IMG/VR virus record: IMGVR_UViG_2651869695_000011
DNA length: 40,258 nt
Strand: one strand, 5' to 3'
Source: a virus
Lineage: Duplodnaviria; Heunggongvirae; Uroviricota; Caudoviricetes
Under the pieces are notes generated by a model, which worked only from the letters and a program-made list of their open reading frames with translations, made no database searches and was not told the DNA's origin. Positions within the stretch are counted from its first letter, which is position 1. Each line of letters begins with the position of its first letter. Below are positions 1,289 to 29,144 of the stretch, in pieces. A program made the position numbers and the translations under genes.

Positions 1289-1771
1289 CTATCTTGTCAG
1301 GGTGTCATACTGTTTTTCGCAGACTCTTCCGGCTTCGGCTGCCCGGTCAGCATACTCTGCCAGTTGTCTGTTTCTCTCGAGAGATTTGCTGAGCACGTCG
1401 GCAAGCAAAACTCCGGTATCTGCGGCTGACGCCCCAGCGCCGACAATGGCGTTATACTGCCTGAGCTGTTCACGGATGGCAACGAGCTGTTGCTGCAACC
1501 TGCCAGCGCGAGCGGCAGCATCAAGAGCATCATTGCGCGCCTGGTCGATCCTCTGCTGCGCTTCACGTTCATTGGTCACTTTCTCCTGTTCGTAGTACTG
1601 ACGAACTTTTTCTTCTTCGGCTTTGCGGTCTTCTTCCGCCTGCGCATACCCGGCATCGTACTGACGGCTGCCGTGTATATTCCAGGCAACAACTCCTGAT
1701 GTGGCAAGAACAGCAAGCATCGCCACGATAAGCAACTGTTTCCAGTATGCTTTTACGAATATCAGGATCAT
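1289..1771 (-). CDS. Rz-like i-spanin
   Basis: Last gene of lysis cassette; N-terminal TM segment ([18 protein letters not shown]) then coiled-coil periplasmic domain; start overlaps endolysin stop (ATGA). Confidence 0.6.
1297..1533 (-). CDS. Rz1-like o-spanin lipoprotein, embedded in Rz in another frame
   Basis: Internal ORF with start [12 protein letters not shown]|C (lipobox LAGC), Pro/Ser-rich mature part; fully nested in Rz as in lambda Rz/Rz1. Start chosen at internal ATG 1531-1533. Confidence 0.45.
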   Translation of the reverse strand: MMLLMLPLALAGCSNSSLPSVNSSGSITPLSALGRQPQIPEFCLPTCSANLSRETDNWQSMLTGQPKPEESAKNSMTP

Positions 1772-2397
1772 ACCGCCAGCACCTTACTGGCAGTTATGTA
1801 TCGCGCACGCCGGTCGTCGATGCCGTTCCGGCCACCATTGATAATCAGAGTTACACGTGCAATATCACCGGTATACTTCATGCAGCCTTTGCTGGCAAAA
1901 AACCACGCCGCACTACGAGCCGCATATTCATCCTGCGCCAGCAGTTCAGGACTCTCCAGCAGGTCAACTTTCAGACCGTTTCCACAGTCACGATAGTTAT
2001 TCAAACCGGTAATCTGGATAAGCCCGCGCCCACGGTAATTCCAGCCATCACCAGGGGCATTGTTACCCATGCGTTTGCTGTACACCAAATTTGCGATCGC
2101 TCTCTGGCGCTCAAGTGGCAATGGTGGTTCACCAGCACGGCGCCCCAATGCGTTGGCCTGCCCCTGAGTGAGACGCCCAGCCAGAACGAAGTTAGCCAGT
2201 CCGGTGACGCTGTAGTTGAAGTTCTCCTGCAGCCGGGTGAAGCCTCCAGACTCATGCCCGACCTGAGCAATAAACATTGCCTGATCTTCTGGTTTGCTGA
2301 TACCAAACTCTTTCATCGCAGAAGTTATATGCGAGAACCAGCGTGCGGCCAGCGCCTCGCTAATACCAGCAGCTCGCTGGAATTGTTTAATCTCCAT
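1768..2397 (-). CDS. Endolysin, glycoside hydrolase family 19 (chitinase-like)
   Basis: Motifs [26 protein letters not shown] typical of GH19 phage endolysins; lies between holin-like genes and Rz. Confidence 0.85.
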
Positions 2398-2695
2398 GTT
2401 TAGACCTCGTTATTTTGAAAATCTGAACGACGTTACCGCGAGTTTTAAGAACCGCAGCAAGCATGACAGCATTGATAATGACCTCAGATAAATCCACAGC
2501 CATTGGCGTGCGTAACCAGATTGCATAGACGACACGAACAGGAATACTGGCCGCAGCAACAATAAGGAAATAAGCAAGCCACCCTCCCCACCTTCGATGT
2601 TGTGAACCGTTACGCCGGAATGTGACAACACGAATTGCTATGCCAGTACAAATAAGTGCATTGGTGATAAGCAAAACAAGCTCATTAGTTACCAT
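2387..2695 (-). CDS. Holin/antiholin-like small membrane protein
   Basis: 102 aa, two to three hydrophobic segments, immediately upstream of endolysin with overlapping stop/start. Confidence 0.5.
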
Positions 2696-3086
2696 CGCCT
2701 TTTCTCCCCGGAATTAACTCGCGTGGATTATCGGAACGGTGATAGAGCCAGATGCCAATTCGAACTGCAACGATTGCTGACACGAATGCACCAGCAGAGA
2801 AAACAATCCCTTTCTCGAAAGAGTCCTGCGTGATGGTAGGGATCAGGCTGGCTACGCCGATAAGGATGGATGCAGTTGGTTTGTAGAAGAGAAGGCCGCA
2901 GAGAAAGCTGAGCATCGACAGGAGAACCCGGCGGCGGATCGGGTATTCGACAGCCGAGGTAACAAAGATTACCGCGCCTGCCAAAGACCCCAACGCCACT
3001 TCTGGCGGGACACCAGCGATTACCGCAGCGAGCGAACCCATACTAAGCCACTGATTTAAAGACTCACTTGTTAGCCCGGCTGACAT
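2685..3086 (-). CDS. Holin-like membrane protein
   Basis: About 133 aa with multiple TM segments; first gene of lysis cassette. Start set at ATG 3084-3086 (SD GGTGG); the ORF-track GTG at 3093 is less likely. Confidence 0.5.
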   Translation of the reverse strand: MSAGLTSESLNQWLSMGSLAAVIAGVPPEVALGSLAGAVIFVTSAVEYPIRRRVLLSMLSFLCGLLFYKPTASILIGVASLIPTITQDSFEKGIVFSAGAFVSAIVAVRIGIWLYHRSDNPRELIPGRKGDGN

Positions 3087-3175
3087 AATGACCACCGTTT
3101 ACTGTGCATAAAGAACCTCCTTAGTTGGTTCTCATATCATACACAATAAACCATATGTGTTTTAATTTGGTAACA

Positions 3176-3226: not shown

Positions 3227-5971
3227 TTAACCTTTAGAAAAAACAGACAGTAACGGAAGTGTAAAAGTCGACACACCAGTATTCATCATGCAGGTTTTAC
3301 CACCTGAGTATCCAGATATGGTTTGCGAAACTGGACTTCCTGTTGTTGGGAAAATGGTGATTTCATCCCCCCCCTTCAATACTCTAACTTTGCCTGTAAC
3401 ATCAACCGATGAACTTGAAACAGACGTGAGAGATCCGTTGGTCATTGTATAAAAGTTTATAGTTCCTGTTGCTGTTCTGCTTACACCACATCCTGATTTT
3501 TGCTTCTGTTTATAGTTAAACAATACCAGCAGGCCAACAGGCATTGACTCAAGCTCAACTGCTGTAGACTGGTAGGTCTTACTGCCGTTTCTCATGTCAG
3601 GAGCCTCATCATCTGGATCAGAAAAATTATACCCAAGAGTTAAATCATTAACCGTGGCATTATTCCCTGTTATTCCTTTGACTTGATTAACACTTAACGG
3701 TATGTAATTAAACCCTGCAAAAAGCGGTGTTAACTTTTCTCTAAATAAAAGGCCTGGTGGGTATACTAACGAAGGTGTACCATCATATGTCACTGAGATA
3801 ATATTAAGTCCCTTTTTAAGGGTTCCAATGCACGTTGTTTGTTTGCCTGTAAATGATGTTAGCCCATTGCTGGCAACTTTACCTGATAGATAAGAAGAGT
3901 TCCTGATGTCATTGAGAATGACATTGAACTGGTTAACACGATCTGATGAAGTATAAGTTGGGTTATATGGCTCAAATAATGTTACAGAGATATCGCTTGT
4001 ATCACTCCATACAAAATACCGACAAATAACATTTTCATTTGAAGGCGTAATCCTTCCCCATCCACCAAGTGCATCAAGATAATCACCTCCACTTAATATC
4101 GAAATTGATGGGTAGTATCTGGTATTTGAAGGGTATCCAATACCAATAAATGAAAGTTGAGTAGTAGGGATTAGGTTCTTATTTTTTACAGCTGTATAAA
4201 CGCGCTCTTTTAATACCTCTTTTGCAGCATAAGCACCGATGTATGCATGTCCTATCGTTGATGGATGGCTCTGGTCAAAGACAGTACCGCCGTCACGTTT
4301 GGCAACATCAGATATAGAGTACGCGCCTATATCTGCATAAGCGTCAGTCGTGGCAATGGACAAATCCAAAAACTCGACCTTTGGGAAAAGGCGTTCGATA
4401 CGCTTCTTAATGGCTGACTCCAGGAAAGCCTTTGGCGCATCGTTATTGTTTACAGTAACAAAGCATATCGGACAACCATATCCCCATGATTTTCTAATCA
4501 ACTTTTCAAACTCATGAAAATACGCTTCAAATCCTATTGTTGGAAGTATTCCATTGTCATTAAAACCAAGGCTTATAAAAAGAACATCAGGAGCTTTTTT
4601 TCCATACGCAGCATTCTGGAAAAATCCATAGTCGAAGTTTTCATAACCCCAACCTGTCGCAAGTGACTTGCCAGACGATCCGCAGTTATATGCTTTAAAA
4701 ATATTATCCGTGCTGTCGGATAGCATATTGAGGCAATCAGTAAAAATTCTGAACCATGAATGCTTACCGCCATTTAAATTATGATTGTAGTTGGTAGAGT
4801 TAAGATTTCCATCGCTACCAGTCGGGTTCGGGGTCCATCCTGAACTATAGGCTCCATCCGTTATAGAATCACCAATGATACCTACATGGCAATCTTCTAT
4901 AGTTGATTGGTAACTCTGCTTATTTGCAAATTTAGCAATTGTTCCAAGAGCAGTAAAATCAGGGCCATTGTTAGATAGCCCAACATCAAAAACATGCTCA
5001 TTACCCCATTTGTCTCTTGTGAGAATTTTACCTTCTCCAAGAAATTTAGTCACATCATCTGACGGTAAAAAATTACACCTGATGGTTACATCTTTTGGGA
5101 TGTAAATCTGACCAGGGAAAGCATAAATTGCACTTCTGTTGTCAGTTGTCGTGTTAATAACGACATTTGGAACATAAAATATTGACGTTGCGTCAGTTCT
5201 ATATTGTCCGTTAACAAGCTCAGATCTGAGAACCGCATCCCCAACACCTCTCCAAGCGCCAGGACCAACACCACCAGTAGTGGTAGGAGTTGATCCTGGA
5301 GGAACTACTTTGGGCAGTGGCCCGTCCCATCTGTAGTATTCGCCGTTGCTTTCCCAGAGAAGAACATCGTTAAGATAGATGATGGTATTACCCAACTCAA
5401 AAGATTTCTTCGTGTTATAGCCATACAATCCATTTTCTAAGGTTTCAATAATGGTGCTAAGTATGGTACTAAATTTTGCATAAAGATCATCAGTATATTT
5501 TTTTGTAGCAGCATCTTGGGGAAGAGATGGATCACGAAGATTTCTAATATAATTTGAAAGCGCGTCATAAAAAATTGCTACGTCATTTGGCTTTCTTAAA
5601 GCCAACTTATCATTTCTTAATGATTGTTGAATGAGCATAGTAAGTTTATCAAACGCATCCTCATGTACCTCAGCGAAGAACTTACCCTGATTACGTAAAT
5701 CCGTTTCCTGAGTAGCTGGTAGTTCTCGTGATATAGATATCTGATGACCGTTAGCCAACGCCTTCGAGAGAATTACATTACCGCCGTTATATCCTCCAGC
5801 CCCGGTAACTGTGTAATCAGTATCAAGAGCCAGCACAGCGATATTTTCGTCAAGGTCAACCACCTGTACTACCAGATCAGATTTATTGAAAACCCTAAAG
5901 GTGTACGGAAATGATGTCGTAACGCCGTTACCTGTGTATTCGTTGTGGTCAACTTCGGTTGAGACCGTCAT
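3227..5971 (-). CDS. Tailspike/tail fibre: T7 gp17-like N-terminal adaptor + SGNH (GDSL) esterase domain + C-terminal beta-rich domain
   Basis: N-terminus YTGNGVTTSFPYTF...DLVV...DYTVTG resembles podovirus fibre head-binding domain; SGNH blocks GIIGDSITDG (block I), ISLGFNDN (block III), DQSHPSTIGH (block V); SD GGAG 8 nt upstream; AT-rich body. Confidence 0.8.
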   Translation of the reverse strand: MTVSTEVDHNEYTGNGVTTSFPYTFRVFNKSDLVVQVVDLDENIAVLALDTDYTVTGAGGYNGGNVILSKALANGHQISISRELPATQETDLRNQGKFFAEVHEDAFDKLTMLIQQSLRNDKLALRKPNDVAIFYDALSNYIRNLRDPSLPQDAATKKYTDDLYAKFSTILSTIIETLENGLYGYNTKKSFELGNTIIYLNDVLLWESNGEYYRWDGPLPKVVPPGSTPTTTGGVGPGAWRGVGDAVLRSELVNGQYRTDATSIFYVPNVVINTTTDNRSAIYAFPGQIYIPKDVTIRCNFLPSDDVTKFLGEGKILTRDKWGNEHVFDVGLSNNGPDFTALGTIAKFANKQSYQSTIEDCHVGIIGDSITDGAYSSGWTPNPTGSDGNLNSTNYNHNLNGGKHSWFRIFTDCLNMLSDSTDNIFKAYNCGSSGKSLATGWGYENFDYGFFQNAAYGKKAPDVLFISLGFNDNGILPTIGFEAYFHEFEKLIRKSWGYGCPICFVTVNNNDAPKAFLESAIKKRIERLFPKVEFLDLSIATTDAYADIGAYSISDVAKRDGGTVFDQSHPSTIGHAYIGAYAAKEVLKERVYTAVKNKNLIPTTQLSFIGIGYPSNTRYYPSISILSGGDYLDALGGWGRITPSNENVICRYFVWSDTSDISVTLFEPYNPTYTSSDRVNQFNVILNDIRNSSYLSGKVASNGLTSFTGKQTTCIGTLKKGLNIISVTYDGTPSLVYPPGLLFREKLTPLFAGFNYIPLSVNQVKGITGNNATVNDLTLGYNFSDPDDEAPDMRNGSKTYQSTAVELESMPVGLLVLFNYKQKQKSGCGVSRTATGTINFYTMTNGSLTSVSSSSVDVTGKVRVLKGGDEITIFPTTGSPVSQTISGYSGGKTCMMNTGVSTFTLPLLSVFSKG

Positions 5972-6424: not shown

Positions 6425-6560
6425 GATTTGAAATTACCAAGAGGAGTGCTTATATTTACCTTTGCGGTAAATTTACATCGCACTCCTCTTGTGCCATAGT
6501 AATCGGGCACTGGCAAAATCCAGTGCCGGGATTGGCGTCCCGAGTTACTAAGTGGCGCAT

Positions 6561-6583
6561 ACCACGCCAGACGTGGTTTTTTT
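6561..6583 (+). terminator. Rho-independent terminator
   Basis: ACCACG-CCAGA-CGTGGT hairpin followed by TTTTTTT. Confidence 0.55.
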
Positions 6584-6739
6584 ATGCGTTAAGCACAGCC
6601 ATATCCGAATTATGGTGGGCTGGGCAGGGGTCCGAAAGGACGCCGGTACCACTTAGGCCGGTACGCCAACCTTGTCCAGTTCACCACCAGTAATTGGCGT
6701 TGCGGTGGTGATTAAAATCACTAAGTGGAGATAACCACC

Positions 6740-7450
6740 ATGGCTAATGCTCAAACTGCCATCTTCAAATTTGAATCTGTTAACCCTATCCGTTCCATCA
6801 TTATCGATGGCCAACCATGGTTTGTAGCCCAAGACGTTTGTAGTGCGCTGCGTATCCAAAACGTCACCCAAGCACTTGAAAAACTGGATGATGATGAAAG
6901 GTCTATGTTCAACATAGGGCATGAACATCGTGCAATTTTTGACAGCCGAGTAAAAGAGATCAACATCATCTCCGAGTCAGGCCTCTACACACTGATCCTC
7001 CGCTGCCGCGATGCGGTGACACCAGGCACTATCCCCTACCGCTTTCGTAAATGGGTTACAGGTGAGGTTCTTCCTCAGATCCGCCGCACCGGAAGTTACA
7101 TTAAAAACTCGCTCCCGCAGGAAGAACGCATAAAGATGGTTGCCGACCAGGTAGCCAACGCCACAGCATCAGCAGTGATGCAGGCAATGAAGATAGAGAA
7201 CAAAACCTACAGTGCCCCACTGAAGCCCGGCTACCGCAGTCTGATTCATTCTCCGTCTGGTGTTCTCGGCCTGACGGAGAACTCACTGCTGATGAATTTG
7301 CTGAACCAGTTGCAGGAAGACGGGCACGATGTATCGGGCGCGGCGGCGGAGCTGACCACCATGTTTTGCTACATCGTTGGTGTGAGCAAATGCCTGCGTG
7401 ATATCCAGACTCACGCGGAGTACATCAACGACAAGGCTGGGTTCTTCTGA
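6740..7450 (+). CDS. Bro-N domain antirepressor-family protein
   Basis: Classical Bro-N signature (FKFESVNPIRSIIIDGQPWFVAQDVCSAL...LDDDE...ISESGLYTLIL...FRKWVTGEVLPQIRRTG); SD GGAG 9 nt upstream of ATG 6740; C-terminal domain paralogous to 6167-6424. Confidence 0.75.
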   Translation: MANAQTAIFKFESVNPIRSIIIDGQPWFVAQDVCSALRIQNVTQALEKLDDDERSMFNIGHEHRAIFDSRVKEINIISESGLYTLILRCRDAVTPGTIPYRFRKWVTGEVLPQIRRTGSYIKNSLPQEERIKMVADQVANATASAVMQAMKIENKTYSAPLKPGYRSLIHSPSGVLGLTENSLLMNLLNQLQEDGHDVSGAAAELTTMFCYIVGVSKCLRDIQTHAEYINDKAGFF

Positions 7451-7597
7451 CGGGCGGCGGCACAGGGATGTGCCTTTAAATAATTCTGTACAGATTGCAG
7501 ACTGTGGGTGAATAGCGTACTATTACCTCAAGGGTAAACGGATTGGTTTCATTTTTATTAATCCGTGTAATGAACTTATGAGATATGAGGTAATGTC

Positions 7598-7777
7598 ATG
7601 CGAAACGAAAAATTGCAGATGCGTAGAGCGCAAGCTGCCGCAAGACGTTCTTTCAATGGAAGCGTAGAGTACGTAAAAGTTACTATGACAAAAGATCACG
7701 CAAGTCGCGTATCCCGAGCTTTCTTTGATTCTCGTAACAATAAGGAAAATTATGAGTTCGTCTGCGTCGCAGAATGA
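7598..7777 (+). CDS. Small basic protein (59 aa), possible DNA-binding or antitoxin-like partner
   Basis: Not in ORF track (below size cutoff); good SD TGAGGTAA 6 nt upstream of ATG; Arg-rich N-terminus; 3' end overlaps start of next gene in a different frame. Confidence 0.3.
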   Translation: MRNEKLQMRRAQAAARRSFNGSVEYVKVTMTKDHASRVSRAFFDSRNNKENYEFVCVAE

Positions 7778-8297
7778 TAAAAATCAAATTGTCAGATATA
7801 AGGGTCGAGTATTGCATACGCAAAATTTCTCGGCCCTTTGTGCATCTGATCTTGAGCTGAAGAAAGTATCTGATGCCTTTACCCAGTATTGGAAAACGGG
7901 ATACCATCCATCTCTTGGTAAAGATGCTGCATTTGCTCGTCCGACAGAAATGCTTAAACTAAATGTCAGGCATACTCATGTCGATAACCAAGACTATATT
8001 CCAGAAGATAGTGATAAAAAACACACTGGTAAAAAATCATCTTGGGATGCATGGAAAAATATAGCGTCTGTGCAAGTAAAATGCATACCAACAAGTGATT
8101 GCTTTTTAGTTTATTCGGTAAATCACAATCGTGATGCGCTGGTTATGTTTTTTGTTGACGCAGATGCCCACAACATAACTGAGCAAGAAGAGTTTAAAGA
8201 GGAAGCAATCACTATCAGTTATCAATTCTTTGAGAAAACAAAAACAGAACCAATGCCTTTAGAAGAAGATCTTTTTTCTGATAAATGGAAGGAATAA
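7752..8297 (+). CDS. Hypothetical moron protein (181 aa), no family recognised
   Basis: SD AAGGA 7 nt upstream of ATG 7752; AT-rich codon usage unlike neighbouring virion genes; followed by a strong terminator. Confidence 0.5.
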   Translation: MSSSASQNDKNQIVRYKGRVLHTQNFSALCASDLELKKVSDAFTQYWKTGYHPSLGKDAAFARPTEMLKLNVRHTHVDNQDYIPEDSDKKHTGKKSSWDAWKNIASVQVKCIPTSDCFLVYSVNHNRDALVMFFVDADAHNITEQEEFKEEAITISYQFFEKTKTEPMPLEEDLFSDKWKE

Positions 8298-8319
8298 GCC
8301 CGCGTTGCGGGCTTTTTTG
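8296..8319 (+). terminator. Rho-independent terminator
   Basis: GCCCGC-GTT-GCGGGC then TTTTTTG immediately after the stop codon. Confidence 0.65.
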
Positions 8320-8356
8320 TGTCTGCGGATTCCCGCCCGGGCGGCGGTGGCATTCG

Positions 8357-8383
8357 TTAAAAACAAGGCCGCGAAAGCGGCCT
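8357..8383 (-). terminator. Rho-independent terminator of the virion operon (minus strand)
   Basis: On minus strand GGCCGC-TTTC-GCGGCC followed by TTGTTTTTAA. Confidence 0.55.
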
Positions 8384-8395
8384 GTGACATGTCAC
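8384..8395. repeat. 12-bp perfect palindrome GTGACATGTCAC (copy 1 of 3)
   Basis: Exact 12-mer between convergent terminators at the moron/virion boundary. Confidence 0.6.
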
Positions 8396-8396
8396 G

Positions 8397-8957
8397 CTAC
8401 ATTGATATATGATTCATAAAGTAGCTTAAAGATTTACTTCCCAGAAAAGAAATTTCTTTTCCTGGATATGTCGCAATAATTGAGCATGACTTATCCCCGT
8501 TAGAGGTAACAAATCCTGAATAACCTACTTGTTCTTTACCATTTTGTTGCTTGGCTAAAAAGTAGAGGTAGCTTATCTTTTTGCCCTCTGGGTAAAACTC
8601 TGCCAAACCAGTATCGGTGATTGAATATTTTATTCTCCCGCCTTGAGTAACGTTTTCCATCTCAAGTTTAGCTATGTCTTTTCTGTTGTATTCAGCATTG
8701 ATTTTCCTTTCGAAATCAATGTTGTTTTCAAATGAGTAGGAAGCAACAGTCTGAATAGATGGGAACACGTTTATCTGGATGCCTCCACAGTCGGCACAGG
8801 TATAAAGGTATGAATCAGATGGAATCCCCATAAAAGAAAACTGAGTTACCTTAAATTTATCGTTATCTCCAAAGTATTGAAGTTCGCATTTAACATTTTG
8901 CCCTGCAAAAGAAAATGCAGACATCAATATTGAAACAAAAAATATAATTGCCTTCAT
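8397..8957 (-). CDS. Secreted protein (cleavable signal peptide), function unknown; last gene of virion operon
   Basis: N-terminus MKAIIFFVSILMSAFSFA|GQ; start 2 nt after stop of upstream 850-aa virion gene; markedly AT-rich. Confidence 0.55.
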   Translation of the reverse strand: MKAIIFFVSILMSAFSFAGQNVKCELQYFGDNDKFKVTQFSFMGIPSDSYLYTCADCGGIQINVFPSIQTVASYSFENNIDFERKINAEYNRKDIAKLEMENVTQGGRIKYSITDTGLAEFYPEGKKISYLYFLAKQQNGKEQVGYSGFVTSNGDKSCSIIATYPGKEISFLGSKSLSYFMNHISM

Positions 8958-8959
8958 TA

Positions 8960-11512
8960 TTATTTACCTAGCATGAACTGCGATGGTGGGATCAGAAAGT
9001 CGTTACCCTGCTCACGCTCAACACGGCGCTGATAACGCTCAAGAGAGCCTGGGTCAAGGGCATCTTGTATCCGGTTCAATATTAAACCATTCATCGCCGT
9101 ACGAAGCCAGAACACGTTGAGGAATGGCGTATTGTCAAGTGCCGTGCGATACCAGTCACCCAAATCTGCATCCCCTCTCGTGGTCTGCTGGAGCAGCGTG
9201 ATAATGCTGTCAGCGTTCGATGCTGCTGGCCCCATTAGCGACGTAACCGGCCCGGCCCCCATGCGGTTGACCTCGCCAAACATGAAGTCACCCAAGATGC
9301 CAAGACCGCCCCCCTGAGATGCGGCTGCGAGAAACGTCTTGGCATCTGCCGGGCGTGGTGTTTGCCCTTTCAGCATGAGTTTTGACTGCATGGAGATATA
9401 ACCAAACATAGTCGCCCAGACAAAGAGGTTTGCAGCACCAAGGAAAGCCCCCTTCCCGTTACGTAGCAGCGCATTCGTCAGCGATCCGGTTTTCGACTCA
9501 CCAAGCCCAGCAGGAATATAACCACGCCCGAATACTTCGCGTCCTAGTACGTTCTGCATGAAGCTTGCAGTGAACGATTTGTACTGACCAGCGAATCGTA
9601 TTGCTTCCCCAGCCACCGTTCCTGGCACCGTGCCCATCTTCATAAACGCCTGCGTGCGATCGCCAGGCTCTGACATGGCGATATTCAGGCGGTCAAGGAT
9701 GTAGCCGCGCAACTGCCCTTCCAATTGATCGCGTGCGTCAGCGATAGCGCGCTGCGTTGGTTTGATCCCCTTACTCTCTACATAACCGGCAATCACTTCG
9801 TCAGGCACGCCGCGGATGCCGCTGGTCGTCATGAACTTACGACCTTCGCTATCGGCCATGTCCATGTTGCGAAAAATTTCCCACTCACGTTCGCCAATAC
9901 CGTGCAGATCCAGCACGCGTCGCAGGTCTTCCGGTAGCCGCGCATGAGACTGGTCAGCATTCTTTGCAAGCCAGTTGGTTATCATCATGGCGTTGCTGTT
10001 GCGACCGCTCTCGGTCCAGAAGTTCATGAGGTTGTACTTAAAGAAAAGCTGCTGCGCGCGACCAAGCTTTCCATTCAGCGTGTCATCACCAGATATGCGC
10101 CGGATGATTTCCTGCGTCATGGAGTCGGAATAAACTCCGATAGAGGAAAGGATCTCTTTCTGCTCCGCGCTGTTGTAACGCGTGAAGCGGCCTCTCATAG
10201 CACCAAGCAACGCCTGCATAAAATTCTGCCCTTGGTAGCGCATCTCGGTAGCGGCGATAGGCACGTCGTTAAACGATGAGATTACCGCACCACCAAGTTG
10301 GCTCATACGCAACCAGCCGCGTACAGCCGCCGACGCATTGGCCCAGCCTACGCTGCCAGGAATATTTAGCGAGCCGTCAACCTGCGGCATTACGGTACGG
10401 TTAATGCGACGCACCTTCGTCATGTAGTCAGCCAACGCTGCCGGTCTTCCGGATTTGCTGATATCTTCAGCAATGGCGTCCGTCAGGTACTTAAACATGT
10501 TCTGTGGGTTAGTGCCCAGTACGCGCATCATGCCCGTTGTGCGGGCAGCGCTGTTTAAGCCACCAAACAGCGCTTCTCGCAGGCTGCCGGTGCCGAATTG
10601 CTGGTTGTACTCGTGCCACGAGATACCATCTTTGAAGTGCAAAATTCGCTCTTGGCTGGCGCGTTTAGCTGCGTTCGCCGATCCCTTAAAGCCATTCATC
10701 CAATCGGGCTTTTCAGATGTAAGATGCACGCCGGAAGCCAGCCCGTTATAAATGTTACGCATGAACTGCTCGCGGTCAGCCACGCCGTCAAAAGTGCGCT
10801 CATCAAGGCGCGGGAGAATAGCATTTCGCCATGCTTCATAACCTGCGGCGCGGATCTTCATGATGTCGTGTGACTGGCGAACTATATAGCCCGGCTCTTT
10901 GCGTATCCATGCCCCGGCGCGGTTCTCATCAATGCGCGCAGTTTCCTGCCATTTCATGATGATTTGTGCAGCGCTTACGGATTGCTTTGTCATACCGTCA
11001 GTTGACTGCCCGCGCCCTATGCGCCACATTGCATCGGCAATTTCCCGGTCATTGCTGCCGCTGGCGATGAATTGCACCAGTCCGGCACGGTCAAAATCGT
11101 AGTTGATACCGGAATGATACTTGCCGCGCAGTTGCGCCACCTCCGAAGATACCGACCGGCGGGCGCCGGTACGCGCATCGTTGCGGCCAACCAGCATTGC
11201 TTCAAGCCCGATATCCGGGCGGTCTTTCCAGATAGTACGAAGCTCTCTAAGTCGTTGTGCGGCAATACGGGCGTTGATTGCCTTATTGCGAGCCTCAATC
11301 TGTTTTGCCAGCATATCGGCATTGCTCAGTTCTTCCGCTGCGCGCATCGCGGCCTCTTCCAGAGACAGCGCCTCATTGGTCGCCAGAATTCGCCTAGTGG
11401 TGTCGTTCATGTCACGCACCAGCGACTCCATCTCATCGGAAGAAAGCTCGCGACCAGCGGCAGCATTTACACTGCGCTCGCACTGCGTCAAAAATTCGTT
11501 TGCTGCCATCAC
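8960..11512 (-). CDS. Large internal virion (ejection/core) protein
   Basis: 850 aa, in block of large proteins between tail tube and tailspike as in T7 gp15/gp16 region; call by position and size. Confidence 0.5.
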   Translation of the reverse strand: MMAANEFLTQCERSVNAAAGRELSSDEMESLVRDMNDTTRRILATNEALSLEEAAMRAAEELSNADMLAKQIEARNKAINARIAAQRLRELRTIWKDRPDIGLEAMLVGRNDARTGARRSVSSEVAQLRGKYHSGINYDFDRAGLVQFIASGSNDREIADAMWRIGRGQSTDGMTKQSVSAAQIIMKWQETARIDENRAGAWIRKEPGYIVRQSHDIMKIRAAGYEAWRNAILPRLDERTFDGVADREQFMRNIYNGLASGVHLTSEKPDWMNGFKGSANAAKRASQERILHFKDGISWHEYNQQFGTGSLREALFGGLNSAARTTGMMRVLGTNPQNMFKYLTDAIAEDISKSGRPAALADYMTKVRRINRTVMPQVDGSLNIPGSVGWANASAAVRGWLRMSQLGGAVISSFNDVPIAATEMRYQGQNFMQALLGAMRGRFTRYNSAEQKEILSSIGVYSDSMTQEIIRRISGDDTLNGKLGRAQQLFFKYNLMNFWTESGRNSNAMMITNWLAKNADQSHARLPEDLRRVLDLHGIGEREWEIFRNMDMADSEGRKFMTTSGIRGVPDEVIAGYVESKGIKPTQRAIADARDQLEGQLRGYILDRLNIAMSEPGDRTQAFMKMGTVPGTVAGEAIRFAGQYKSFTASFMQNVLGREVFGRGYIPAGLGESKTGSLTNALLRNGKGAFLGAANLFVWATMFGYISMQSKLMLKGQTPRPADAKTFLAAASQGGGLGILGDFMFGEVNRMGAGPVTSLMGPAASNADSIITLLQQTTRGDADLGDWYRTALDNTPFLNVFWLRTAMNGLILNRIQDALDPGSLERYQRRVEREQGNDFLIPPSQFMLGK

Positions 11513-13206
11513 ATCCCCCGGTTAATCATACAGGCGGCAAATGCCCGGAAAGCGTTGCTCATGCTATTGTCGCTGGCGTCGGCACGAATATCATTGAGTT
11601 TCTGGCGCAACGTGGTCGCAAGATCAGGGTTATCGACAGCGATATCGTCAAGCAGGGCGTTACTCAGGTTGAGCTCGTTATCAAGGTCTGCAGCGGCAGC
11701 GGTAATTTCATGATCTGCCTTTTGCGTTTCTTGATAAACCCGATCGGCTGTTTCGCTTGCTGGGCGAGCCGTTTCATCAACCTGCCGTGCCGGGTTCTGT
11801 ATGCGATGGATGGCGCGTTCACGCAGTGCCGGTTTGTGCAGTTCATAGAAGGGCTCAACATCTGGGCTACGTCCTTCCATCATGTGTGCCAGCGCAGCGC
11901 GATACGCCTGCTGGTTCACGTTCCAGTCAGCATCCCTGATGGCGCTTGCGGCAGTGCGAACTGCGCCAGCGACCGGCGACATCTGCATGCCGTCCAGGAT
12001 CTGCTGCGCACGCTCGGAAATGGTGACTTTCAGATCGTCGGGGATATCGCCGCGGGAAATCTGAGACTGGCGCCAGCGCGCCTGCTCTGCTGTCGCGTTC
12101 TGCTCCAGCGATGTGTTGATCTCCTGATTGCGTGCAGCGATGGCGTCTTTCTCGGCCTGAATCTCTTTCAGTGCCCTAGAGCGCGCATCCTTAAACTTCA
12201 TCCGCTGCCCCTGATACTTTTTGGTGCGCTGCTGCAGCGTCGCATCAAGCGAGTCAGCATGACGTTGATTAGCCGCAAGCTCGGCACGCAGGTCGGCAAC
12301 GTTACCGATCTGCCCGCTCTGTAACTCCTGCTGGCGCGCCATATAGTCAGGAACCACGTCGTCATAAGCCCGGCTGTATGCGTAGCTCTCCGCTTCACTG
12401 GAAATGGCCGCCGCCAGATCTGCGTTAGCGCCAACCTCAGGGATATTCACGCCCGCCGGAATGTTGTCAGGCGTTATCACCGGGGTTGGCTGCGCATCGC
12501 CAGAAAACGCCGGGGACTCTCCCGTTGCAGCATCGGGAACGCGACGCGGTCGCACGATATCGGCGATAAGGCCGCCGCCGGCATGCATTAGACCGCCAGC
12601 CATCGTGTTAAAGAAAGTACTTTCCAACGCGTTGCTATAGGTGAAGTCGTCACCTTCCGCCGCCGCTGCCAGCCCGGTAAGCGGCACGGTCACCACCGCC
12701 TGCGCTGCCCCCATGCGTGCACCAGCAACAAATCGCTCGCCAAATCGGCCAAGCACAGAAGCCGCCTTTGCTTCTCCAGCGAACGGAACCAGCGCCAGCG
12801 CCACGTTACCAGGATCTGCCATTGAACCAGCTAGGCTGGCTGCGAAATTAAGCGGCGTGGCTACCCACCCGCTCGGTGCCGACATCGCGATCTGCTGGCG
12901 TGCCAGAGAATCTTTGCGTTCGGCAATAACATGATCGAGAAAAGCCTGCGTAACGCCAGAATCTGGCACGTTTATGCTCTTTACGCCGTACTGCTTCAGG
13001 AGCTCATCCGCTTCCTGCTTACTGATAACTGTAGAGTTTGGGTCATTCGCCAGCGAGTCGGCCTGCGCAAAGCGGTAGCCGGACATGACCGGCCCCTCTT
13101 CAAATCCCTGCTTAAGGGAAGAAAGCAGCGATTCGCCAAGCCCTGCTGGCGCGTTGCCAATTGGCTGGTTAATTCCCTGTCCCGGATCATCTGTGTAAAT
13201 TGGCAT
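11509..13206 (-). CDS. Internal virion protein (coiled-coil rich)
   Basis: 565 aa, overlapping stop/start with neighbours, long Ala/Gln/Glu-rich helical segments; position-based call. Confidence 0.5.
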   Translation of the reverse strand: MPIYTDDPGQGINQPIGNAPAGLGESLLSSLKQGFEEGPVMSGYRFAQADSLANDPNSTVISKQEADELLKQYGVKSINVPDSGVTQAFLDHVIAERKDSLARQQIAMSAPSGWVATPLNFAASLAGSMADPGNVALALVPFAGEAKAASVLGRFGERFVAGARMGAAQAVVTVPLTGLAAAAEGDDFTYSNALESTFFNTMAGGLMHAGGGLIADIVRPRRVPDAATGESPAFSGDAQPTPVITPDNIPAGVNIPEVGANADLAAAISSEAESYAYSRAYDDVVPDYMARQQELQSGQIGNVADLRAELAANQRHADSLDATLQQRTKKYQGQRMKFKDARSRALKEIQAEKDAIAARNQEINTSLEQNATAEQARWRQSQISRGDIPDDLKVTISERAQQILDGMQMSPVAGAVRTAASAIRDADWNVNQQAYRAALAHMMEGRSPDVEPFYELHKPALRERAIHRIQNPARQVDETARPASETADRVYQETQKADHEITAAAADLDNELNLSNALLDDIAVDNPDLATTLRQKLNDIRADASDNSMSNAFRAFAACMINRGM

Positions 13207-13207
13207 G

Positions 13208-15829
13208 TTATCGTCCTGATTGCTGGCCGTTCTGGAAAATGTTAATCAGGTTGTCGCGCTGACTTTCTGCGCTGTATTCCTTAGACTGTCCGGGAGTATA
13301 TTTCACCGGAGTATCAATGAACTTGGTAATGCTGTTCCATACTGATCGGTTGGTTGTTCCCAGTTTCGCCAGATCGTTGAACGGCACCGTAATCGGGTTG
13401 CCGTCGGCACCGTTGACGATCAGCCCGTTGAGCATCAGGGTAAGTCCTGTTTCGTCGCTGTTGGTAACCCACTGCGCATTATCACGAATGCGGGAGATAC
13501 TCTGCTCACGGTTGACCTCATCAGGTAGCCTTGGGTCACCAATAAGCGGCATAATCTGATCTGCTGACAGGTTTTTCAGATACGCATTGGCACCATCGTT
13601 AACGTCACGAATATCTATCCCTGCACGCTTAGGTAGCCGCCAAGTGCCATTGGTCTGGTACTGCTCGCCGAGGATGTCCTGATACGCCTGTTTTGCTGCA
13701 TCAGACGCCGACATTCCGCGCTGCATGTTGATGTAAGTAAGTCGTTTTCCCTGCTCGTTGAAGTTATTCCACACGGCAGTGCCACCAGGCTGAACAACCA
13801 TCGTGCCAGCAAAATCTTTCGATTGGTCATTCCATGACGAGTCGGCGCTATCCGCGTCGGTTTTCTCAAGACTGCCGCGTAAGTCAGCAGTTTTAACGCT
13901 ACGGTTTTGCCAGAGCGCATTTGCCGCGCGCGGGTTCTCGGTAGCCATGACAACCTGCAACGCAGGATAAGCGCTCTTCTGAACCTGCTGCATCACCTGA
14001 TCCGAGTATTTGCCGAACGACTGCGCCACCGACTGAATGGCCTTTACGCTAGATTCCTGCGTGTTGTCAATACGCTGCAGTACATCATTGACCATGGACT
14101 CCGGTAAAACTTTTTTGCTCATTATCCCCAGGCGGTCTTTTTCAGACTGTATTCGGGAAACTAGGTATTCACCAGATGAAGGGTCATTCAGGTACTGCTG
14201 GAATGCAGCCTGCACAACCGGAGAGTTTTGTTGCAGCCATGCCCCCGGATCCGCTTCCCGCGCCTTCAGTACCTGCCCAAGCTTGACCTTTGCCGATGCA
14301 TAAAGCTCTGCTTTGTATTTAAAGTCAGGGTCGTTTTCCTGCGGTGCCATTGCCTGCACGGCGGCGGTACCCTGCTGGACGTTGCCCTGCATAATGGTCT
14401 GATAAACAGGTTGTAGCGTCATTGCCTGCTGGTATTGCTGGAAGGTTTTTTCCATCTGCAGGCGCTCGGCAGGCGCTGCCTGAAGCGGCATAACGGCGGC
14501 CCATTCGTGCGCTGAAATAGGCGTCACCTGCTTACCGGCCTCAATTTTGGATAGGTCGTCCTGCATTCGACTCTGTAGCGCAACGCGACCGGCTGAAGCC
14601 TGCATGTCGTACATGCCAGCAACCTTGCTCATCATCTGCGACTTTTTGTCCGGACTCATGGCGTTCCAGAATGGCTGTGCGATGAGGTTTTCCATCGTCG
14701 CAGATCCAGGAATAGCTCCAGCACTGCCAGTTACTTTTGCCACATAATTGCGCGTCTCGTCGTATGGGATAGCTGCGGCAAACTGGGCGTTACTGACTTC
14801 GCCTGTGCGCGGGTCGCCAATCTGTTTAATCCAGCCGTCAACCTTTCCTGGGCCAGCGTTATAGGCAGCTACTGCCAGAACCGGGTTATTGTCGTATTTC
14901 TTCATCTGCGCGCCGAAATAAGCTTGCCCCAAGCGGGCATTATAGCGCGGGTCATTCAACCATTTATCGCGGTCCCACGGCACGCCAGCAAGGCGGGCAG
15001 CTTCGGGGCCAGTATCTTCCGTCACCTGCGCTACGCCAACAGCGCCTTTTGGCGACACCAGAGGTGTTCCGTCCTTTCCGTACTGATTTCCGCCACTCTC
15101 CTGCCAGATTATTGCAGAGAATAACTGCGCCTCACTCGGTGTATCGGTTACCTCAATCTTGCCGTTCGGACCCATCATCTGTTGATACATCGGCACATAC
15201 CACGCCTCCGCCGCACCGTTCGCGGCATTCTCGCGCCACGAAACCCAGTTCTGTTCGATCTCTTCCTGACTCTGGCCGTGGGCTTCGCCGTAAGCGATGA
15301 TGCTATGATATGCCTTCAATCCTGCCTGGTTTGCCATTGTCGGGTTACGGAACTGCATCGATAGGTTTTTTAGTGTCGCATCCTGCATATCCGCCTCATA
15401 CTGGCGAACCTGTCCTATTTCGTACCTCCCGGCCTGCGTAGTGAACTGAATGCGCTGCTGCTGCGCCTGCTGCATGAAAGCATTACGAGCCTGTTCATCC
15501 GGCAGCGACATAGCCAGTTGCTCGACCTGGGCATCAAACTGCTGCGTATACTCCTGACCTTTTCCAATAGCATTTTTCCCTTTCAGGTTAAGCAATCCTG
15601 TTTCAGGATTATTCAGCAGATCGCTGCTTATCTGACTGAGGTTAAGAGATGCCTCCTGAGCCAGAGCGATATTGGCACGCTGTTTTGCCTGCCCCAAAAC
15701 ATCAATTGCCTCTGTCCCTGCCCGAACAAAAGCATCACCAATACCTTGCTGAGAAAACGTCTGCAAGCCTGCTGACTGAACTCCACGACTCTCAACCTGA
15801 CGTCCGGATACTGTTGGTACGACTGGCAT
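13208..15829 (-). CDS. Internal virion protein with lytic transglycosylase (SLT) domain
   Basis: Motifs IIWQESGGNQ...AVGVAQV...AAYNAGPGKV characteristic of family-1 lytic transglycosylases; start set at internal ATG 15827-15829 (SD GGAGG, TAATG overlap with upstream gene). Confidence 0.8.
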   Translation of the reverse strand: MPVVPTVSGRQVESRGVQSAGLQTFSQQGIGDAFVRAGTEAIDVLGQAKQRANIALAQEASLNLSQISSDLLNNPETGLLNLKGKNAIGKGQEYTQQFDAQVEQLAMSLPDEQARNAFMQQAQQQRIQFTTQAGRYEIGQVRQYEADMQDATLKNLSMQFRNPTMANQAGLKAYHSIIAYGEAHGQSQEEIEQNWVSWRENAANGAAEAWYVPMYQQMMGPNGKIEVTDTPSEAQLFSAIIWQESGGNQYGKDGTPLVSPKGAVGVAQVTEDTGPEAARLAGVPWDRDKWLNDPRYNARLGQAYFGAQMKKYDNNPVLAVAAYNAGPGKVDGWIKQIGDPRTGEVSNAQFAAAIPYDETRNYVAKVTGSAGAIPGSATMENLIAQPFWNAMSPDKKSQMMSKVAGMYDMQASAGRVALQSRMQDDLSKIEAGKQVTPISAHEWAAVMPLQAAPAERLQMEKTFQQYQQAMTLQPVYQTIMQGNVQQGTAAVQAMAPQENDPDFKYKAELYASAKVKLGQVLKAREADPGAWLQQNSPVVQAAFQQYLNDPSSGEYLVSRIQSEKDRLGIMSKKVLPESMVNDVLQRIDNTQESSVKAIQSVAQSFGKYSDQVMQQVQKSAYPALQVVMATENPRAANALWQNRSVKTADLRGSLEKTDADSADSSWNDQSKDFAGTMVVQPGGTAVWNNFNEQGKRLTYINMQRGMSASDAAKQAYQDILGEQYQTNGTWRLPKRAGIDIRDVNDGANAYLKNLSADQIMPLIGDPRLPDEVNREQSISRIRDNAQWVTNSDETGLTLMLNGLIVNGADGNPITVPFNDLAKLGTTNRSVWNSITKFIDTPVKYTPGQSKEYSAESQRDNLINIFQNGQQSGR

Positions 15830-16374
15830 TATAATCCTCCGGGTAATCTGGTTCCTGCTGCTGCCCCGATTGGCGCAGGAGTGCTTTGAGTAAACGGACT
15901 CCACGTCCCACCAAACATCTGGTACGCACCGTATGCCTTCAGAGGCGCAGTGAGCAATGTTGTTGCTGCTCCCACATTCCCCTGTTTACGGGCTGAACTG
16001 GCTTCTGCTTTATAGTTGGCAGCCTGAACCTGATAACCGTAAGCCTCGCGTTGCGCGTTATTCACCGTCGTCAGCGAATCAAGAGCGCCAAACTGGGCAG
16101 TGTCGCCAAATATATCCAGCGCGTTACCTGTAGATAAATCAGAGCCGGTAGCCCCCATTGTCGCCGCCTGTGTACCAAGCCGCTGTCGGGTCTCTCTGCG
16201 CCGTTGCTCAGCTTCAGCGTTACCCCTGTTTATTGCATCATTTGCCTGAGCTGTGGCTATATCTGCGTTCGCTTCTGCAACCTTCGAGGCATACTTTCCC
16301 TGTTGGTACTGGGTGTATGCCTGAATGCCACTCATGGCGAGCATTGCGCCACCAGCAATAACCGGATCGCACAT
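15829..16374 (-). CDS. Small internal virion protein (T7 gp14-like by size/position)
   Basis: 181 aa, Ala/Gly/Gln-rich, between gp13-position gene and large internal proteins. Confidence 0.4.
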   Translation of the reverse strand: MCDPVIAGGAMLAMSGIQAYTQYQQGKYASKVAEANADIATAQANDAINRGNAEAEQRRRETRQRLGTQAATMGATGSDLSTGNALDIFGDTAQFGALDSLTTVNNAQREAYGYQVQAANYKAEASSARKQGNVGAATTLLTAPLKAYGAYQMFGGTWSPFTQSTPAPIGAAAGTRLPGGL

Positions 16375-22815: not shown

Positions 22816-23112
22816 TCACTCCTGTTCACTGGCCTCTTTGGCCATCTTCAAATACTGTTCAGGGCAATGCGCCATAACGCGCTGAAACAGCTCCAGCGCC
22901 AGATTGCGTTGCCCCTCATTAAATGCCATTGCCATAGCATCCATCGGAGAGATAGCGGAAAACACCCGGCCTTTCTCCAGCACAGACCAGACAACGCGAC
23001 GCCCCTGTTCACTGCTCATGACAAAGCGAATGTCATCAATTTCACGCTGTGCCATGTCACGTTGCTTACGGGCGTTTTCTTCTTTCAGTTGATCGTCTTC
23101 GTAATCTGTCAT
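22816..23112 (-). CDS. Hypothetical head-module protein
   Basis: 98 aa, overlapping stop/start with portal and scaffold genes. Confidence 0.45.
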   Translation of the reverse strand: MTDYEDDQLKEENARKQRDMAQREIDDIRFVMSSEQGRRVVWSVLEKGRVFSAISPMDAMAMAFNEGQRNLALELFQRVMAHCPEQYLKMAKEASEQE

Positions 23113-25436: not shown

Positions 25437-25513
25437 GTGGCATTAGCTCAGTTGGACAGAGCAACCGCCTTCTAAGCGGTTGGTCGCAGGTTCGAATCCT
25501 GCATGCCGCGCCA
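25437..25513 (+). tRNA. tRNA-Arg (anticodon UCU)
   Basis: Cloverleaf by hand: acceptor GTGGCAT/ATGCCGC (one U-G pair), D-arm GCTC-AGTTGGACA-GAGC, anticodon arm ACCGC-CTTCTAA-GCGGT, T-arm GCAGG-TTCGAAT-CCTGC, discriminator G, encoded CCA; close to enterobacterial argU. Confidence 0.85.
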
Positions 25514-25711: not shown

Positions 25712-26068
25712 ATGAGCGACCAGCAAATCGAAAAAGAAATCGTTGAGAAAGGCAAAACCGCTCCGCGAGTTACGCCTCAATATATCGAAAGCATCATTCT
25801 TGAAGAGCATTTCTTTACTGCTTATGACGGCATTCGTGCTGCCAATATGGGCGTTGGCGATTCATGGACAGCGCATAAATCTACAGACCTCCTGACTTTC
25901 TGCGTATTGGTACTGAAGAATGGCTTCACCGTCACCGGAGAGAGTGCCTGTGCAAGTCCGGAAAACTTTGATGCGGAAATTGGTCGGAAGATTGCCCGGC
26001 AGAATGCTGTAAACAAAATCTGGATGCTCGAAGGTTACTTGCTGAAGCAGAAGTTAAGCGAGCAATAA
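25712..26068 (+). CDS. Hypothetical moron protein (118 aa) between tRNA and terminase
   Basis: SD AAGGTGAG 3 nt upstream of ATG; opposite strand to flanking late genes; bracketed by terminators. Confidence 0.55.
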   Translation: MSDQQIEKEIVEKGKTAPRVTPQYIESIILEEHFFTAYDGIRAANMGVGDSWTAHKSTDLLTFCVLVLKNGFTVTGESACASPENFDAEIGRKIARQNAVNKIWMLEGYLLKQKLSEQ

Positions 26069-26072
26069 CACC

Positions 26073-26084
26073 GTGACATGTCAC
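26073..26084. repeat. 12-bp perfect palindrome GTGACATGTCAC (copy 2 of 3)
   Basis: Exact 12-mer 5 nt after the moron gene stop, preceded by ATAACACC as in copy 3. Confidence 0.6.
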
Positions 26085-28523: not shown

Positions 28524-28535
28524 GTGACATGTCAC
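28524..28535. repeat. 12-bp perfect palindrome GTGACATGTCAC (copy 3 of 3)
   Basis: Exact 12-mer in short gap between two minus-strand genes; shares upstream ATAACACC and downstream GCCAGCCT with copy 2. Confidence 0.6.
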
Positions 28536-28870
28536 ACTATTAATTTCGTTTCATGCCAGCCTTTGGTCACCCAGCATTGCGAGTCACCATTACACGGGCA
28601 TGAATTCACAGGAACTCTCTCGCCGCACTTACCGCAACGTTTTCTGCTGATCGATTTTATACGCCCGCGCACGCGTGCATCATCCTGGCGGATCAGTAAC
28701 GCTATATACTCACCAAATTCGTAAGGCGCGCGCCCGGGGCGACGCGTGGCACAGTTACGCTCCAGCATTTCAATTTCCTGAGCATCAAGCACAATTTCCA
28801 GCTTACGCACACCGGATTCAGCTTGTCTGGCTCTCTGAGCGGCTTTGCGCTCTGCTGCTGATTTAGCCAT
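28532..28870 (-). CDS. Putative DNA-binding protein with C-terminal Cys-rich zinc-ribbon (possible late regulator)
   Basis: Basic N-terminus (KAAQRARQ...), C-terminal CGKCGERVPVNSCPCNGDSQC; last gene before terminase; SD AAGGTGA upstream of ATG 28868-28870. Confidence 0.4.
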   Translation of the reverse strand: MAKSAAERKAAQRARQAESGVRKLEIVLDAQEIEMLERNCATRRPGRAPYEFGEYIALLIRQDDARVRGRIKSISRKRCGKCGERVPVNSCPCNGDSQCWVTKGWHETKLIV

Positions 28871-29144
28871 CAATATTCACCTTTATCGCGAACACCTTTA
28901 CCGGTTTATCGCCGAAGTGGGGATGTGTGATTGTCTTGATTTCATATCCGTCATACGGAACATCAATTCTGCGGCTGGAATCGTCGCGCTTCGGATATCC
29001 CTTTGTGATAATCAGGCGGTCATACTTACGGTTAACGAGGCGCTTATTCCAGTAGTCATTACACAGGCGATACTCTTCCGTTTTCTCCCCGCGAATCATG
29101 GCATCGAAGTATTCACCTTTAACGGCAAGTTGCAGGTTAGCCAT
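28863..29144 (-). CDS. ASCH/DUF3850-like (PUA-fold) domain protein
   Basis: Motif YFDAMIRGEKTEEYRLCND resembling ASCH-like proteins (recalled, unverified); strong SD GGAGGTGAGG before ATG 29142-29144. Confidence 0.4.
   Translation of the reverse strand: MANLQLAVKGEYFDAMIRGEKTEEYRLCNDYWNKRLVNRKYDRLIITKGYPKRDDSSRRIDVPYDGYEIKTITHPHFGDKPVKVFAIKVNIDG

Follow-up and report, generated by a model that had tools for sequence, protein, structure and literature searches.

The question raised by the locus described here is why a phage should carry a gene for an exported protein directly behind the last of its ejection genes. The gene in question is a 186-aa open reading frame (ORF) at positions 8397 to 8957, on the minus strand, of IMG/VR record IMGVR_UViG_2651869695_000011. 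The window (this whole stretch of 40,258 nucleotides) is an epsilon15/phiV10-like (Uetakevirus) prophage of Escherichia coli, whose integration site adjoins yfgH/yfgI. The ORF, called the slot gene in what follows, is one allele, 'A', of a variable slot whose position matches that of epsilon15 gp18. The reading that we favour, tentatively and at somewhat less than an even chance, is that its product is a late-operon-coupled periplasmic neutraliser of envelope-breaching proteins, which would act most likely in superinfection exclusion.

A first part of the answer comes from what else is found at this position. A search with the C-terminal 300 aa of this ejection protein fetched 66 IMG/VR loci, of which 61 allowed the end of the gene to be located. 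In every one of the 61, the ORF that follows begins between -4 and +16 nt from the ejection-gene stop and its product is envelope-targeted, that is, a secreted protein, a lipoprotein, or a small protein with one to three transmembrane (TM) segments. The occupants are the 186-aa family itself (allele A, 16 loci), a 123-aa secreted protein (B, 15 loci), a 160-aa lipoprotein (C, one locus), a 118-129-aa secreted protein (D, three loci), a 66-68-aa two-TM protein (E, 13 loci), a 99-aa three-TM protein (F, six loci), a 51-aa TM protein (G, three loci), and other TM proteins of 108-131 aa (four loci). By BLASTP, at least 12 families with no relationship to one another are represented among these alleles, and every type is AT-rich relative to its phage. 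The conserved end of the ejection gene, ...YTDGGNAARTAA (L-G-K-stop), precedes each cassette type across the same range of gaps, and ejection-gene ends that are 100% identical carry allele A in some phages and allele B in others. In epsilon15 and phiV10, exactly the same slot, overlapping or abutting the last ejection gene and followed by the sequence GTGACATGTCAC and a terminator, holds gp18 (64 aa) and p21 (46 aa), which are two-TM, uncharacterised proteins unrelated in sequence to the slot protein. Members of the 186-aa family at 35-43% identity are still found directly behind an ejection gene of about 850 aa, the sole exception among members with enough flank being a protein designated P0023; the genes downstream differ in the diverged carriers (several kinds of tailspike, a tail fibre with a chaperone, or Arc/Ant). 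Identities on the two sides of the boundary are uncoupled, since a slot protein with 74% identity stands beside a 25%-identical ejection gene and one with 45% identity beside an 87%-identical one; thus, the cassette recombines at the gene boundary, independently of its neighbour. Co-evolution of the slot protein with the adjacent ejection protein was considered and, because of the uncoupled identities, rejected. By comparison of these loci, the slot is shown to be a hypervariable cassette site in epsilon15-like (Uetakevirus) phages. Some slots contain envelope genes in tandem: a 99-aa three-TM protein behind a 123-aa secreted protein (L042/L047/L089, ~3905-4580), the lipoprotein MKTMFPAIFISILALSGC... 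behind a 51-aa TM protein (L058, 3905-~4300), and a 137-aa lipoprotein, phrog_8691, behind a family-A member (L030:9001-10049).

The edges of the cassette are sharply drawn. On the left, the TAA of the ejection gene (8960-8962) is followed by two nucleotides, TA, and then by the ATG of the slot gene (8955-8957), just as a preliminary description of this DNA had stated. That description had also called the gene 'translationally fused' to the virion operon, which does not hold, as the slot gene is a separate ORF in another frame; because the frames of the 850-aa gene and the 186-aa ORF differ, the arrangement allows possible translational coupling rather than fusion. A Shine-Dalgarno-like AGG (8967-8969) lies within the final codons of the ejection gene, 9 nt 5' of the slot-gene ATG, and we infer that this AGG/GGGA of the ejection gene would serve as the ribosome-binding site for the slot gene. 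Base composition changes abruptly at the junction, from 55.0% GC (61% at third codon positions, GC3) in the upstream ejection gene to 35.3% (GC3 34%) in the slot gene, compared with 49.6% for the whole window, and the strong AT-richness noted at the outset is thus confirmed. On the right, the edge of the slot consists in most cassette types of the perfect 12-bp palindrome GTGACATGTCAC and then a terminator. Here the terminator, rightly assigned to the slot gene in the preliminary description, is a minus-strand hairpin (8383..8366) with a T-run, a counterpart of which is annotated in phiV10 and epsilon15. The reported convergence with the neighbouring cassette also stands, in that the plus-strand antirepressor/YafO-like unit facing the slot gene ends in a terminator of its own, at 8296-8314.

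The palindrome is present in exact form in 73 of the 100 fetched loci, including epsilon15 (L100:7518-7529), phiV10 (L002:4004-4015), TL-2011b and phiv142-3. The 40-kb window contains three exact copies (8384-8395, 26073-26084 and 28524-28535) and one copy with a single mismatch (23049-23060); by our own estimate the chance expectation of exact copies is well under 0.01, the shuffles made by the search tool having counted matches with up to 2 mismatches. Two of the exact copies are positioned between a stop codon and a terminator hairpin, one after the slot gene and the other after a 118-aa ORF (25712-26068), and the third immediately follows the stop codon of the gene for a phrog_536 transcriptional regulator (28532-28873), which stands at the head of the terminase/late genes. 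GTGACATGTCAC could bind a protein, mark a boundary for recombination or belong to a termination module. The 118-aa ORF, phrog_322, together with a tRNA-Arg(TCT) gene (25437-25513), both on the plus strand, forms an antisense insert between the portal and large-terminase genes, and this insert ends with the same palindrome-plus-terminator module as the slot gene.

The slot protein itself has the features of an exported protein. Its N-terminus reads MKAIIFFVSILMSAFSFA/GQNVKC..., where the slash marks the predicted cleavage, and consists of an n-region, MK, a 15-residue hydrophobic core, AIIFFVSILMSAFSF, and the sequence SFA/G, with S-F-A at -3/-1. The signal peptide and its cleavage site were judged by rule rather than by a predictor, and the predicted mature protein has 168 residues. 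An N-terminal hydrophobic leader is present in all 19 aligned family members, most of which have small residues close to the predicted site of cleavage, so the cleavable signal peptide of the preliminary description is borne out. Outside the leader there is no hydrophobic window >=1.0, leaving the mature protein without a TM segment. A lipobox (L-[AS]-[GA]-C) was found in none of the 19 members, and the first cysteine, C24, comes after GQNVK, five residues past the predicted cleavage site. Four cysteines (C24, C54, C57 and C158) are invariant across the 19 members, which have 29-92% identity. A leader, no lipobox and four invariant cysteines are together what is expected of a soluble, disulfide-bonded periplasmic protein, and the product is probably an exported, disulfide-bonded non-lipoprotein of the periplasm, the compartment proposed in the preliminary description.

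These features bear on the idea that the product is a structural or assembly component of the virion, or an accessory of the tailspike. The gene is placed at, and coupled to, the end of the internal-virion gene block, as a virion gene might be. However, capsids are assembled in the cytoplasm, whereas the export signal, which is cleavable, and the four conserved cysteines suggest the oxidising periplasm as the location of this protein, and related phages replace the slot gene with genes for unrelated membrane proteins. The tailspike version, put forward earlier as an accessory of an O-antigen-modifying tailspike, is contradicted by the finding that copies of the slot gene at least 92% identical stand beside at least 10 tailspike types (sequence clusters), including an endosialidase. 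We regard a virion or tailspike role as very improbable.

The fold provides a second line of evidence. The AlphaFold model is confident, with a predicted local distance difference test score (pLDDT) of 86.7 and a predicted template modelling score (pTM) of 0.81, and is of low confidence only at residues 11-19; a model made from 14 close homologues alone had a pLDDT of 39.8, which rose to 86.7 when five divergent members were added. The model shows an alpha-beta-alpha sandwich of the Mog1/PsbP/DcrB type, an assignment to the superfamily at fold level only. Structural matches, given with their scores, are cyanobacterial PsbP (PDB 2xb3; 11.7), plant PsbP (10.0), the Eag chaperone SciW (9.7), Mog1 (9.6), PA0094 (9.5), LpqN (8.9), Apa/MTC28 (8.3), DcrB (7.9), and three immunity proteins of the type VI secretion system (T6SS), namely Tsi3 (8.0), TplEi (7.8) and Tli4 (7.4). 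The Foldseek result agrees with the Mog1/PsbP assignment. Among the viral structures of BFVD there are two significant neighbours, both annotated as phage lipoproteins; the best, A0A8S5SJ17 (E 8e-5), has a UniProt name of the Ltp family, but it is a 406-aa multidomain protein and the name may therefore concern another domain. Among PDB sequences, a profile search that admitted matches with E up to 10 turned up neither a PsbP nor a DcrB chain, and its match to Llp (E 0.3) was rejected because it is confined to the signal peptide and at chance level. Of the checks that the preliminary description had proposed, structure prediction yielded the Mog1/PsbP fold; annotation by sequence gave only the PHROGs family phrog_11983, annotated 'unknown function'. 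A thioredoxin- or DsbA-like role for C54-x-x-C57 was dropped, since the motif is located in a beta-hairpin turn and not at a helix N-terminus, and matches to the thioredoxin fold were nil. In bacteria the Mog1/PsbP fold is typically a protein-binding module, and its periplasmic versions include T6SS immunity proteins and DcrB.

A further link to immunity proteins comes from a sister allele. The 118-aa type of allele D passes the Pfam gathering score for Rap1a (PF18602; E 1.7e-12, 48 bits against a cutoff of 27.7), a family that Pfam describes as immunity proteins. The allele D loci (L059:3906-4262, L060 and L098:3306-3695) lie in a phage late operon and have no effector gene nearby. Rap1a acts in the periplasm, where it neutralises a T6SS peptidoglycan amidase.

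Such links could also mean that the slot protein is an orphan that confers immunity to toxins used between bacteria (bacteriocins, or T6SS lipases or peptidoglycan hydrolases), and that would shield the host rather than block phages. Its PsbP-like fold is common to Tsi3, Tli4 and TplEi; allele D is a genuine member of the Rap1a family of T6SS immunity proteins; the small TM alleles look like the proteins that give immunity to pore-forming toxins; and P0023 has a SymE toxin gene beside it and no phage context that can be recognised. However, the slot protein has no sequence similarity to the T6SS immunity proteins or to Rap1a, and its gene is part of a phage late operon. In none of the contexts examined is a cognate effector gene adjacent. 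In addition, lysogens would lack protection if the gene is coupled to the late operon and has no promoter, and the family is found almost only behind phage ejection genes. We consider this alternative unlikely.

Under the favoured reading, periplasmic neutralisation, the slot protein would be made together with the late/ejection operon, would accumulate in the periplasm, and would function there as an immunity-type binder that neutralises envelope-breaching proteins coming from outside. The most likely targets would be the muralytic or channel-forming ejection proteins of superinfecting phages. The outcome would be superinfection exclusion or protection from lysis-from-without, like that provided by T4 Spackle and P22 SieA, and an arms race over entry would account for the many alleles. 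A fold found in periplasmic immunity proteins and DcrB, a slot occupied only by envelope proteins, a Rap1a allele, and synteny with sieA are consistent with a putative role in superinfection exclusion.

The synteny is as follows. In P22 the gene order is ejection genes 7-20-16, sieA, the immI region (mnt, arc, ant) and the tailspike, and here also there are ejection genes, the slot gene, an antirepressor region controlled by C4/isrK, and a tailspike. Like SieA, the slot protein would be an accessory protein of a phage that is located in the envelope, and both are encoded immediately behind the ejection genes. The conduit formed by ejection proteins is blocked by SieA, and mutations that allow escape lie in gp16/gp20 (PMC10883804). 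However, SieA resides in the inner membrane, whereas the slot protein is predicted to be soluble and periplasmic. T4 Spackle (Sp), a small helical protein of about 97 aa that has a cleavable signal peptide and comes from a virulent phage, is a periplasmic inhibitor of the incoming gp5 tail lysozyme; by neutralising this muralytic entry protein, it protects the infected cell from superinfection and from lysis-from-without. By analogy, the SLT-domain ejection protein could be the corresponding target in epsilon15-like phages. Cor (of phi80, N15 and T1) and Llp of T5 are likewise exported phage proteins that block the entry of incoming phages, and cor is co-oriented with a late (tail) gene block, at its end. 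Ltp of phage TP-J34, like the slot protein an exported phage protein, blocks the entry of incoming phages as well. Cor, Llp and Ltp are lipoproteins, whereas the slot protein has no lipobox. DcrB, which is needed for DNA injection by phages C1, C6 and Arnold, differs in being a host lipoprotein that aids phage entry; the slot protein has no PF08786 match and has a four-cysteine pattern of its own. The Eag chaperones share the fold and clamp transmembrane helices, but they are cytoplasmic, unlike the slot protein. There is a recent precedent for the blocking of phage DNA entry in the periplasm (PMC13128918).

A bolder form of the proposal would make the slot a dedicated, rapidly exchanged 'anti-entry' locus with a built-in ribosome-binding site and a palindrome-terminator module, whose alleles, at least 12 in number and ranging from soluble periplasmic proteins of the PsbP and Rap1a folds to lipoproteins and mini-membrane proteins, would each neutralise a different part of incoming ejectosomes or other toxins that breach the envelope. 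If so, the 186-aa protein would be the first inhibitor of phage DNA delivery that is soluble, periplasmic and of PsbP fold, working late in the lytic cycle rather than in lysogeny. We think this rather doubtful as a whole.

Several results weigh against a role in superinfection exclusion. Two scans of the minus strand found no sigma-70-like promoter up to 440 nt upstream of the slot gene, although these were consensus scans, which a weak or non-canonical promoter could escape. With no promoter in this interval, the gene is most simply expressed with the late/ejection operon, as the preliminary description had supposed, and expression in the lysogen, where exclusion pays most, is unsupported. 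The missing lysogen promoter is the chief weakness of all protective readings. The arrangement in P22 differs: sieA runs antisense to the ejection genes, is driven by a promoter of its own and is active in the lysogen, whereas the slot gene is co-oriented with the ejection genes and has no visible promoter. Homology to SieA (phrog_7745) was rejected as well, because the hhalign probability is 0.3% and the query matches phrog_11983. The fold matches are generic, at 5-13% identity, and the top ones, PsbP and Mog1, are not immunity proteins. A Pfam scan of the slot protein (E up to 0.1) gave no family, neither PF01789 (PsbP) nor PF08786 (DcrB/DUF1795), and the PADLOC defence models gave no match. 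The exact protein falls in a 139-member cluster in which all source-named members are 'hypothetical protein'. Finally, a slot allele that does not co-vary with the ejection protein encoded in cis indicates no specific target.

The promoter search also bears on the idea that the slot gene is a lysogenic-conversion or host-fitness moron, encoding an envelope-stress, adhesion or virulence factor and expressed from an undetected promoter inside the ejection gene. AT-richness, or deviant base composition, and presence/absence polymorphism are typical of morons, and the slot gene has both. Its carriers include clinical and animal isolates of E. coli, Salmonella and Klebsiella, and roles in the envelope or in interaction with the host are known for other secreted proteins with the PsbP fold, namely Apa and MTC28, which are mycobacterial antigens, and LpqN, which binds lipid. 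The slot gene does not, however, have the form of an autonomous transcription unit: there is a terminator, but the intergenic space is 2 nt and the scans found no promoter up to 440 nt upstream. Strict linkage to the ejection gene across 35-92% identity would also be unexpected for generic cargo. A conversion moron is, in our view, quite improbable.

Coupling to the late operon and a periplasmic location would, on the other hand, suit a late function, such as a lysis or release accessory. This could be a regulator of lysis timing in the periplasm, like the T4 RI antiholin, or a factor that is set free upon lysis and stops progeny phages ejecting into debris or outer-membrane vesicles, and several slot alleles are small proteins with one to three TM segments, the size of holins and antiholins. 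However, a complete lysis cassette is present elsewhere in the window. The slot alleles vary while the lysis cassettes, where visible, keep the same gene set, and the Rap1a-type allele is hard to reconcile with such a role. A lysis or release accessory is distinctly unlikely.

The family is small and restricted. The slot gene is found, as DNA, in 56 of 5426 complete E. coli genomes, and 16 IMG/VR viral contigs encode the family. A word-indexed search of 5.8 billion proteins gave 17 clusters, of which the named ones are all from Enterobacterales, and an exhaustive profile search of 1.84 billion representatives gave only 8 family members. The protein was not found by tblastn against 50,697 deposited phage genome records, the family was not found in a scan of one genome per species, and NCBIfam gave no match. 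Besides the hosts already named, carriers include isolates of Citrobacter, Cronobacter, Enterobacter and Hafnia. Against close homologues the ratio of nonsynonymous to synonymous substitution rates (dN/dS) is 0.11-0.14, which indicates purifying selection on the slot gene, and the slot protein changes 3-4 times faster than the adjacent ejection protein (dN 0.20 vs 0.055). The gene is a real one and not a chance ORF.

The origin of the gene had been described as horizontal acquisition. The foreign composition agrees with this, but a recent date for it is not supported, since members down to 35% identity hold the same position in diverged phages and the association of slot gene and ejection gene is thus old. 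Across family loci L005-L007 and L024-L030 the slot gene is 13-23 GC points below the adjoining ejection gene, and GC3 is 0.24-0.46 in the family genes vs 0.46-0.70 in their neighbours, a difference kept even at 35% protein identity. Because the deficit is kept in each lineage, the composition has not been ameliorated, and low GC may itself be under selection.

Two members occur in unusual surroundings. P0023, the most divergent (29% identity), is encoded at L024:861-1421, on a 1.5-kb contig of SRR10692002, and is not behind an ejection gene; it is preceded by a gene for a SymE-family toxin and a terminator, and has an AT-rich leader of 123 nt. It may be a copy that stands alone in a chromosome and is driven by a promoter of its own. 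P0018 (43% identity; L026 and L027, 233-15709; GCA_006035975.1 contig AAELBO010000003.1 and SRR5440666) has as neighbours the SLT, 562-aa and 848-aa ejection genes and no capsid genes. It is part of an integrase-bounded element of about 16 kb, with AlpA and a DUF927 primase, which is located between yicC and a LysR gene and resembles either a P4-like satellite or a remnant in which ejection genes have been retained.

The remaining features of the locus are collected in the table. The ejection block, on the minus strand, comprises genes for a phrog_308 internal-virion protein, a T7 gp14-like protein, the 898-aa SLT-domain protein, a 565-aa protein and the 850-aa phrog_684 protein. Four ejection proteins of this block are encoded at 15829-16374, 13208-15904, 11509-13206 and 8960-11512. 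The combination of isrK/C4 and Bro-N on the facing strand is an immI control module of the P1/P7 type, here inside a podovirus prophage. The ORF that faces the slot gene (7725-8297 in the window; compared with L001:9804-10343 and L006:8616-9155) is also variable: it is YafO-toxin-like here and in a Hafnia prophage, and a DUF4760 protein takes its place in other slot-gene carriers. No antitoxin partner for the YafO-like ORF is evident.

Table. Coordinates of features at and around the slot gene (positions in the window)
Feature	Position	Strand	Details
Lysis cassette	1289-3095		two holin-like genes, GH19 endolysin, spanin
Tailspike/tail-fibre gene	3227-5971	minus	914 aa; variable among slot-gene carriers
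Convergent antirepressor unit (immI-like)	6507-8297	plus	
isrK RNA	6507-6583	plus	Rfam, 67 bits
C4 antisense RNA	6608-6691	plus	Rfam, 66 bits
Bro-N antirepressor gene	6725-7450	plus	directly 3' of isrK/C4
YafO-like ORF	7725-8297	plus	190 aa; Pfam 26.1 bits, cutoff 25
Convergent terminator of antirepressor/YafO-like unit	8296-8324	plus	
Late/ejection operon terminator	8356-8383	minus	hairpin 8383..8366 AGGCCGC-TTTC-GCGGCCT, then TGTTTTT
Perfect 12-bp palindrome	8384-8395		GTGACATGTCAC; 1 nt past slot-gene stop codon
Slot gene, phrog_11983	8397-8957	minus	186-aa ORF; predicted secreted, Mog1/PsbP/DcrB-like fold in model
Predicted Sec/signal peptidase I (SPase I) signal peptide	8904-8957	minus	codons 1-18, MKAIIFFVSILMSAFSFA; predicted cleavage before G19
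Left junction of cassette	8958-8971	minus	CTA GGT AAA TAA, final codons of ejection gene
Last internal-virion/ejection gene, phrog_684	8960-11512	minus	850 aa; positional counterpart of epsilon15 gp17
SLT-domain ejection protein	13208-15904	minus	898 aa

Accessory proteins that are exported and encoded where a phage late operon ends are already known, as Cor, SieA, Spackle and Llp illustrate, and the slot protein represents a new family, as yet uncharacterised, whose fold is a known one. A literature search on the slot, on exclusion genes of Uetakevirus and on prophage-borne orphan T6SS immunity found nothing specific. Four features appear to be undescribed in the literature searched: the fixed slot that comes with a ribosome-binding site of its own, its boundary of palindrome and terminator, the alleles for a dozen envelope proteins that are unrelated, and immunity-type folds recruited to such a slot. 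Should the reading of the slot protein as a periplasmic neutraliser be wrong, the locus would still be a clean example of a conserved accessory gene with no assigned function. If it is right, the locus would amount to a library, made by nature, of a dozen small envelope proteins that share no ancestry and occupy one genetically defined slot, each allele probably tuned against a phage-entry step or envelope-targeting toxins, and the swapping of alleles would make the poorly understood ejection step of podoviruses, and its inhibition, directly testable. If entry is blocked, susceptibility to therapeutic podoviruses would be affected, given that about 1% of complete E. coli genomes carry the allele. 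If the neutraliser reading is right, the PsbP/DcrB and Rap1a 'immunity' folds would also extend from interbacterial warfare to conflict between phages.

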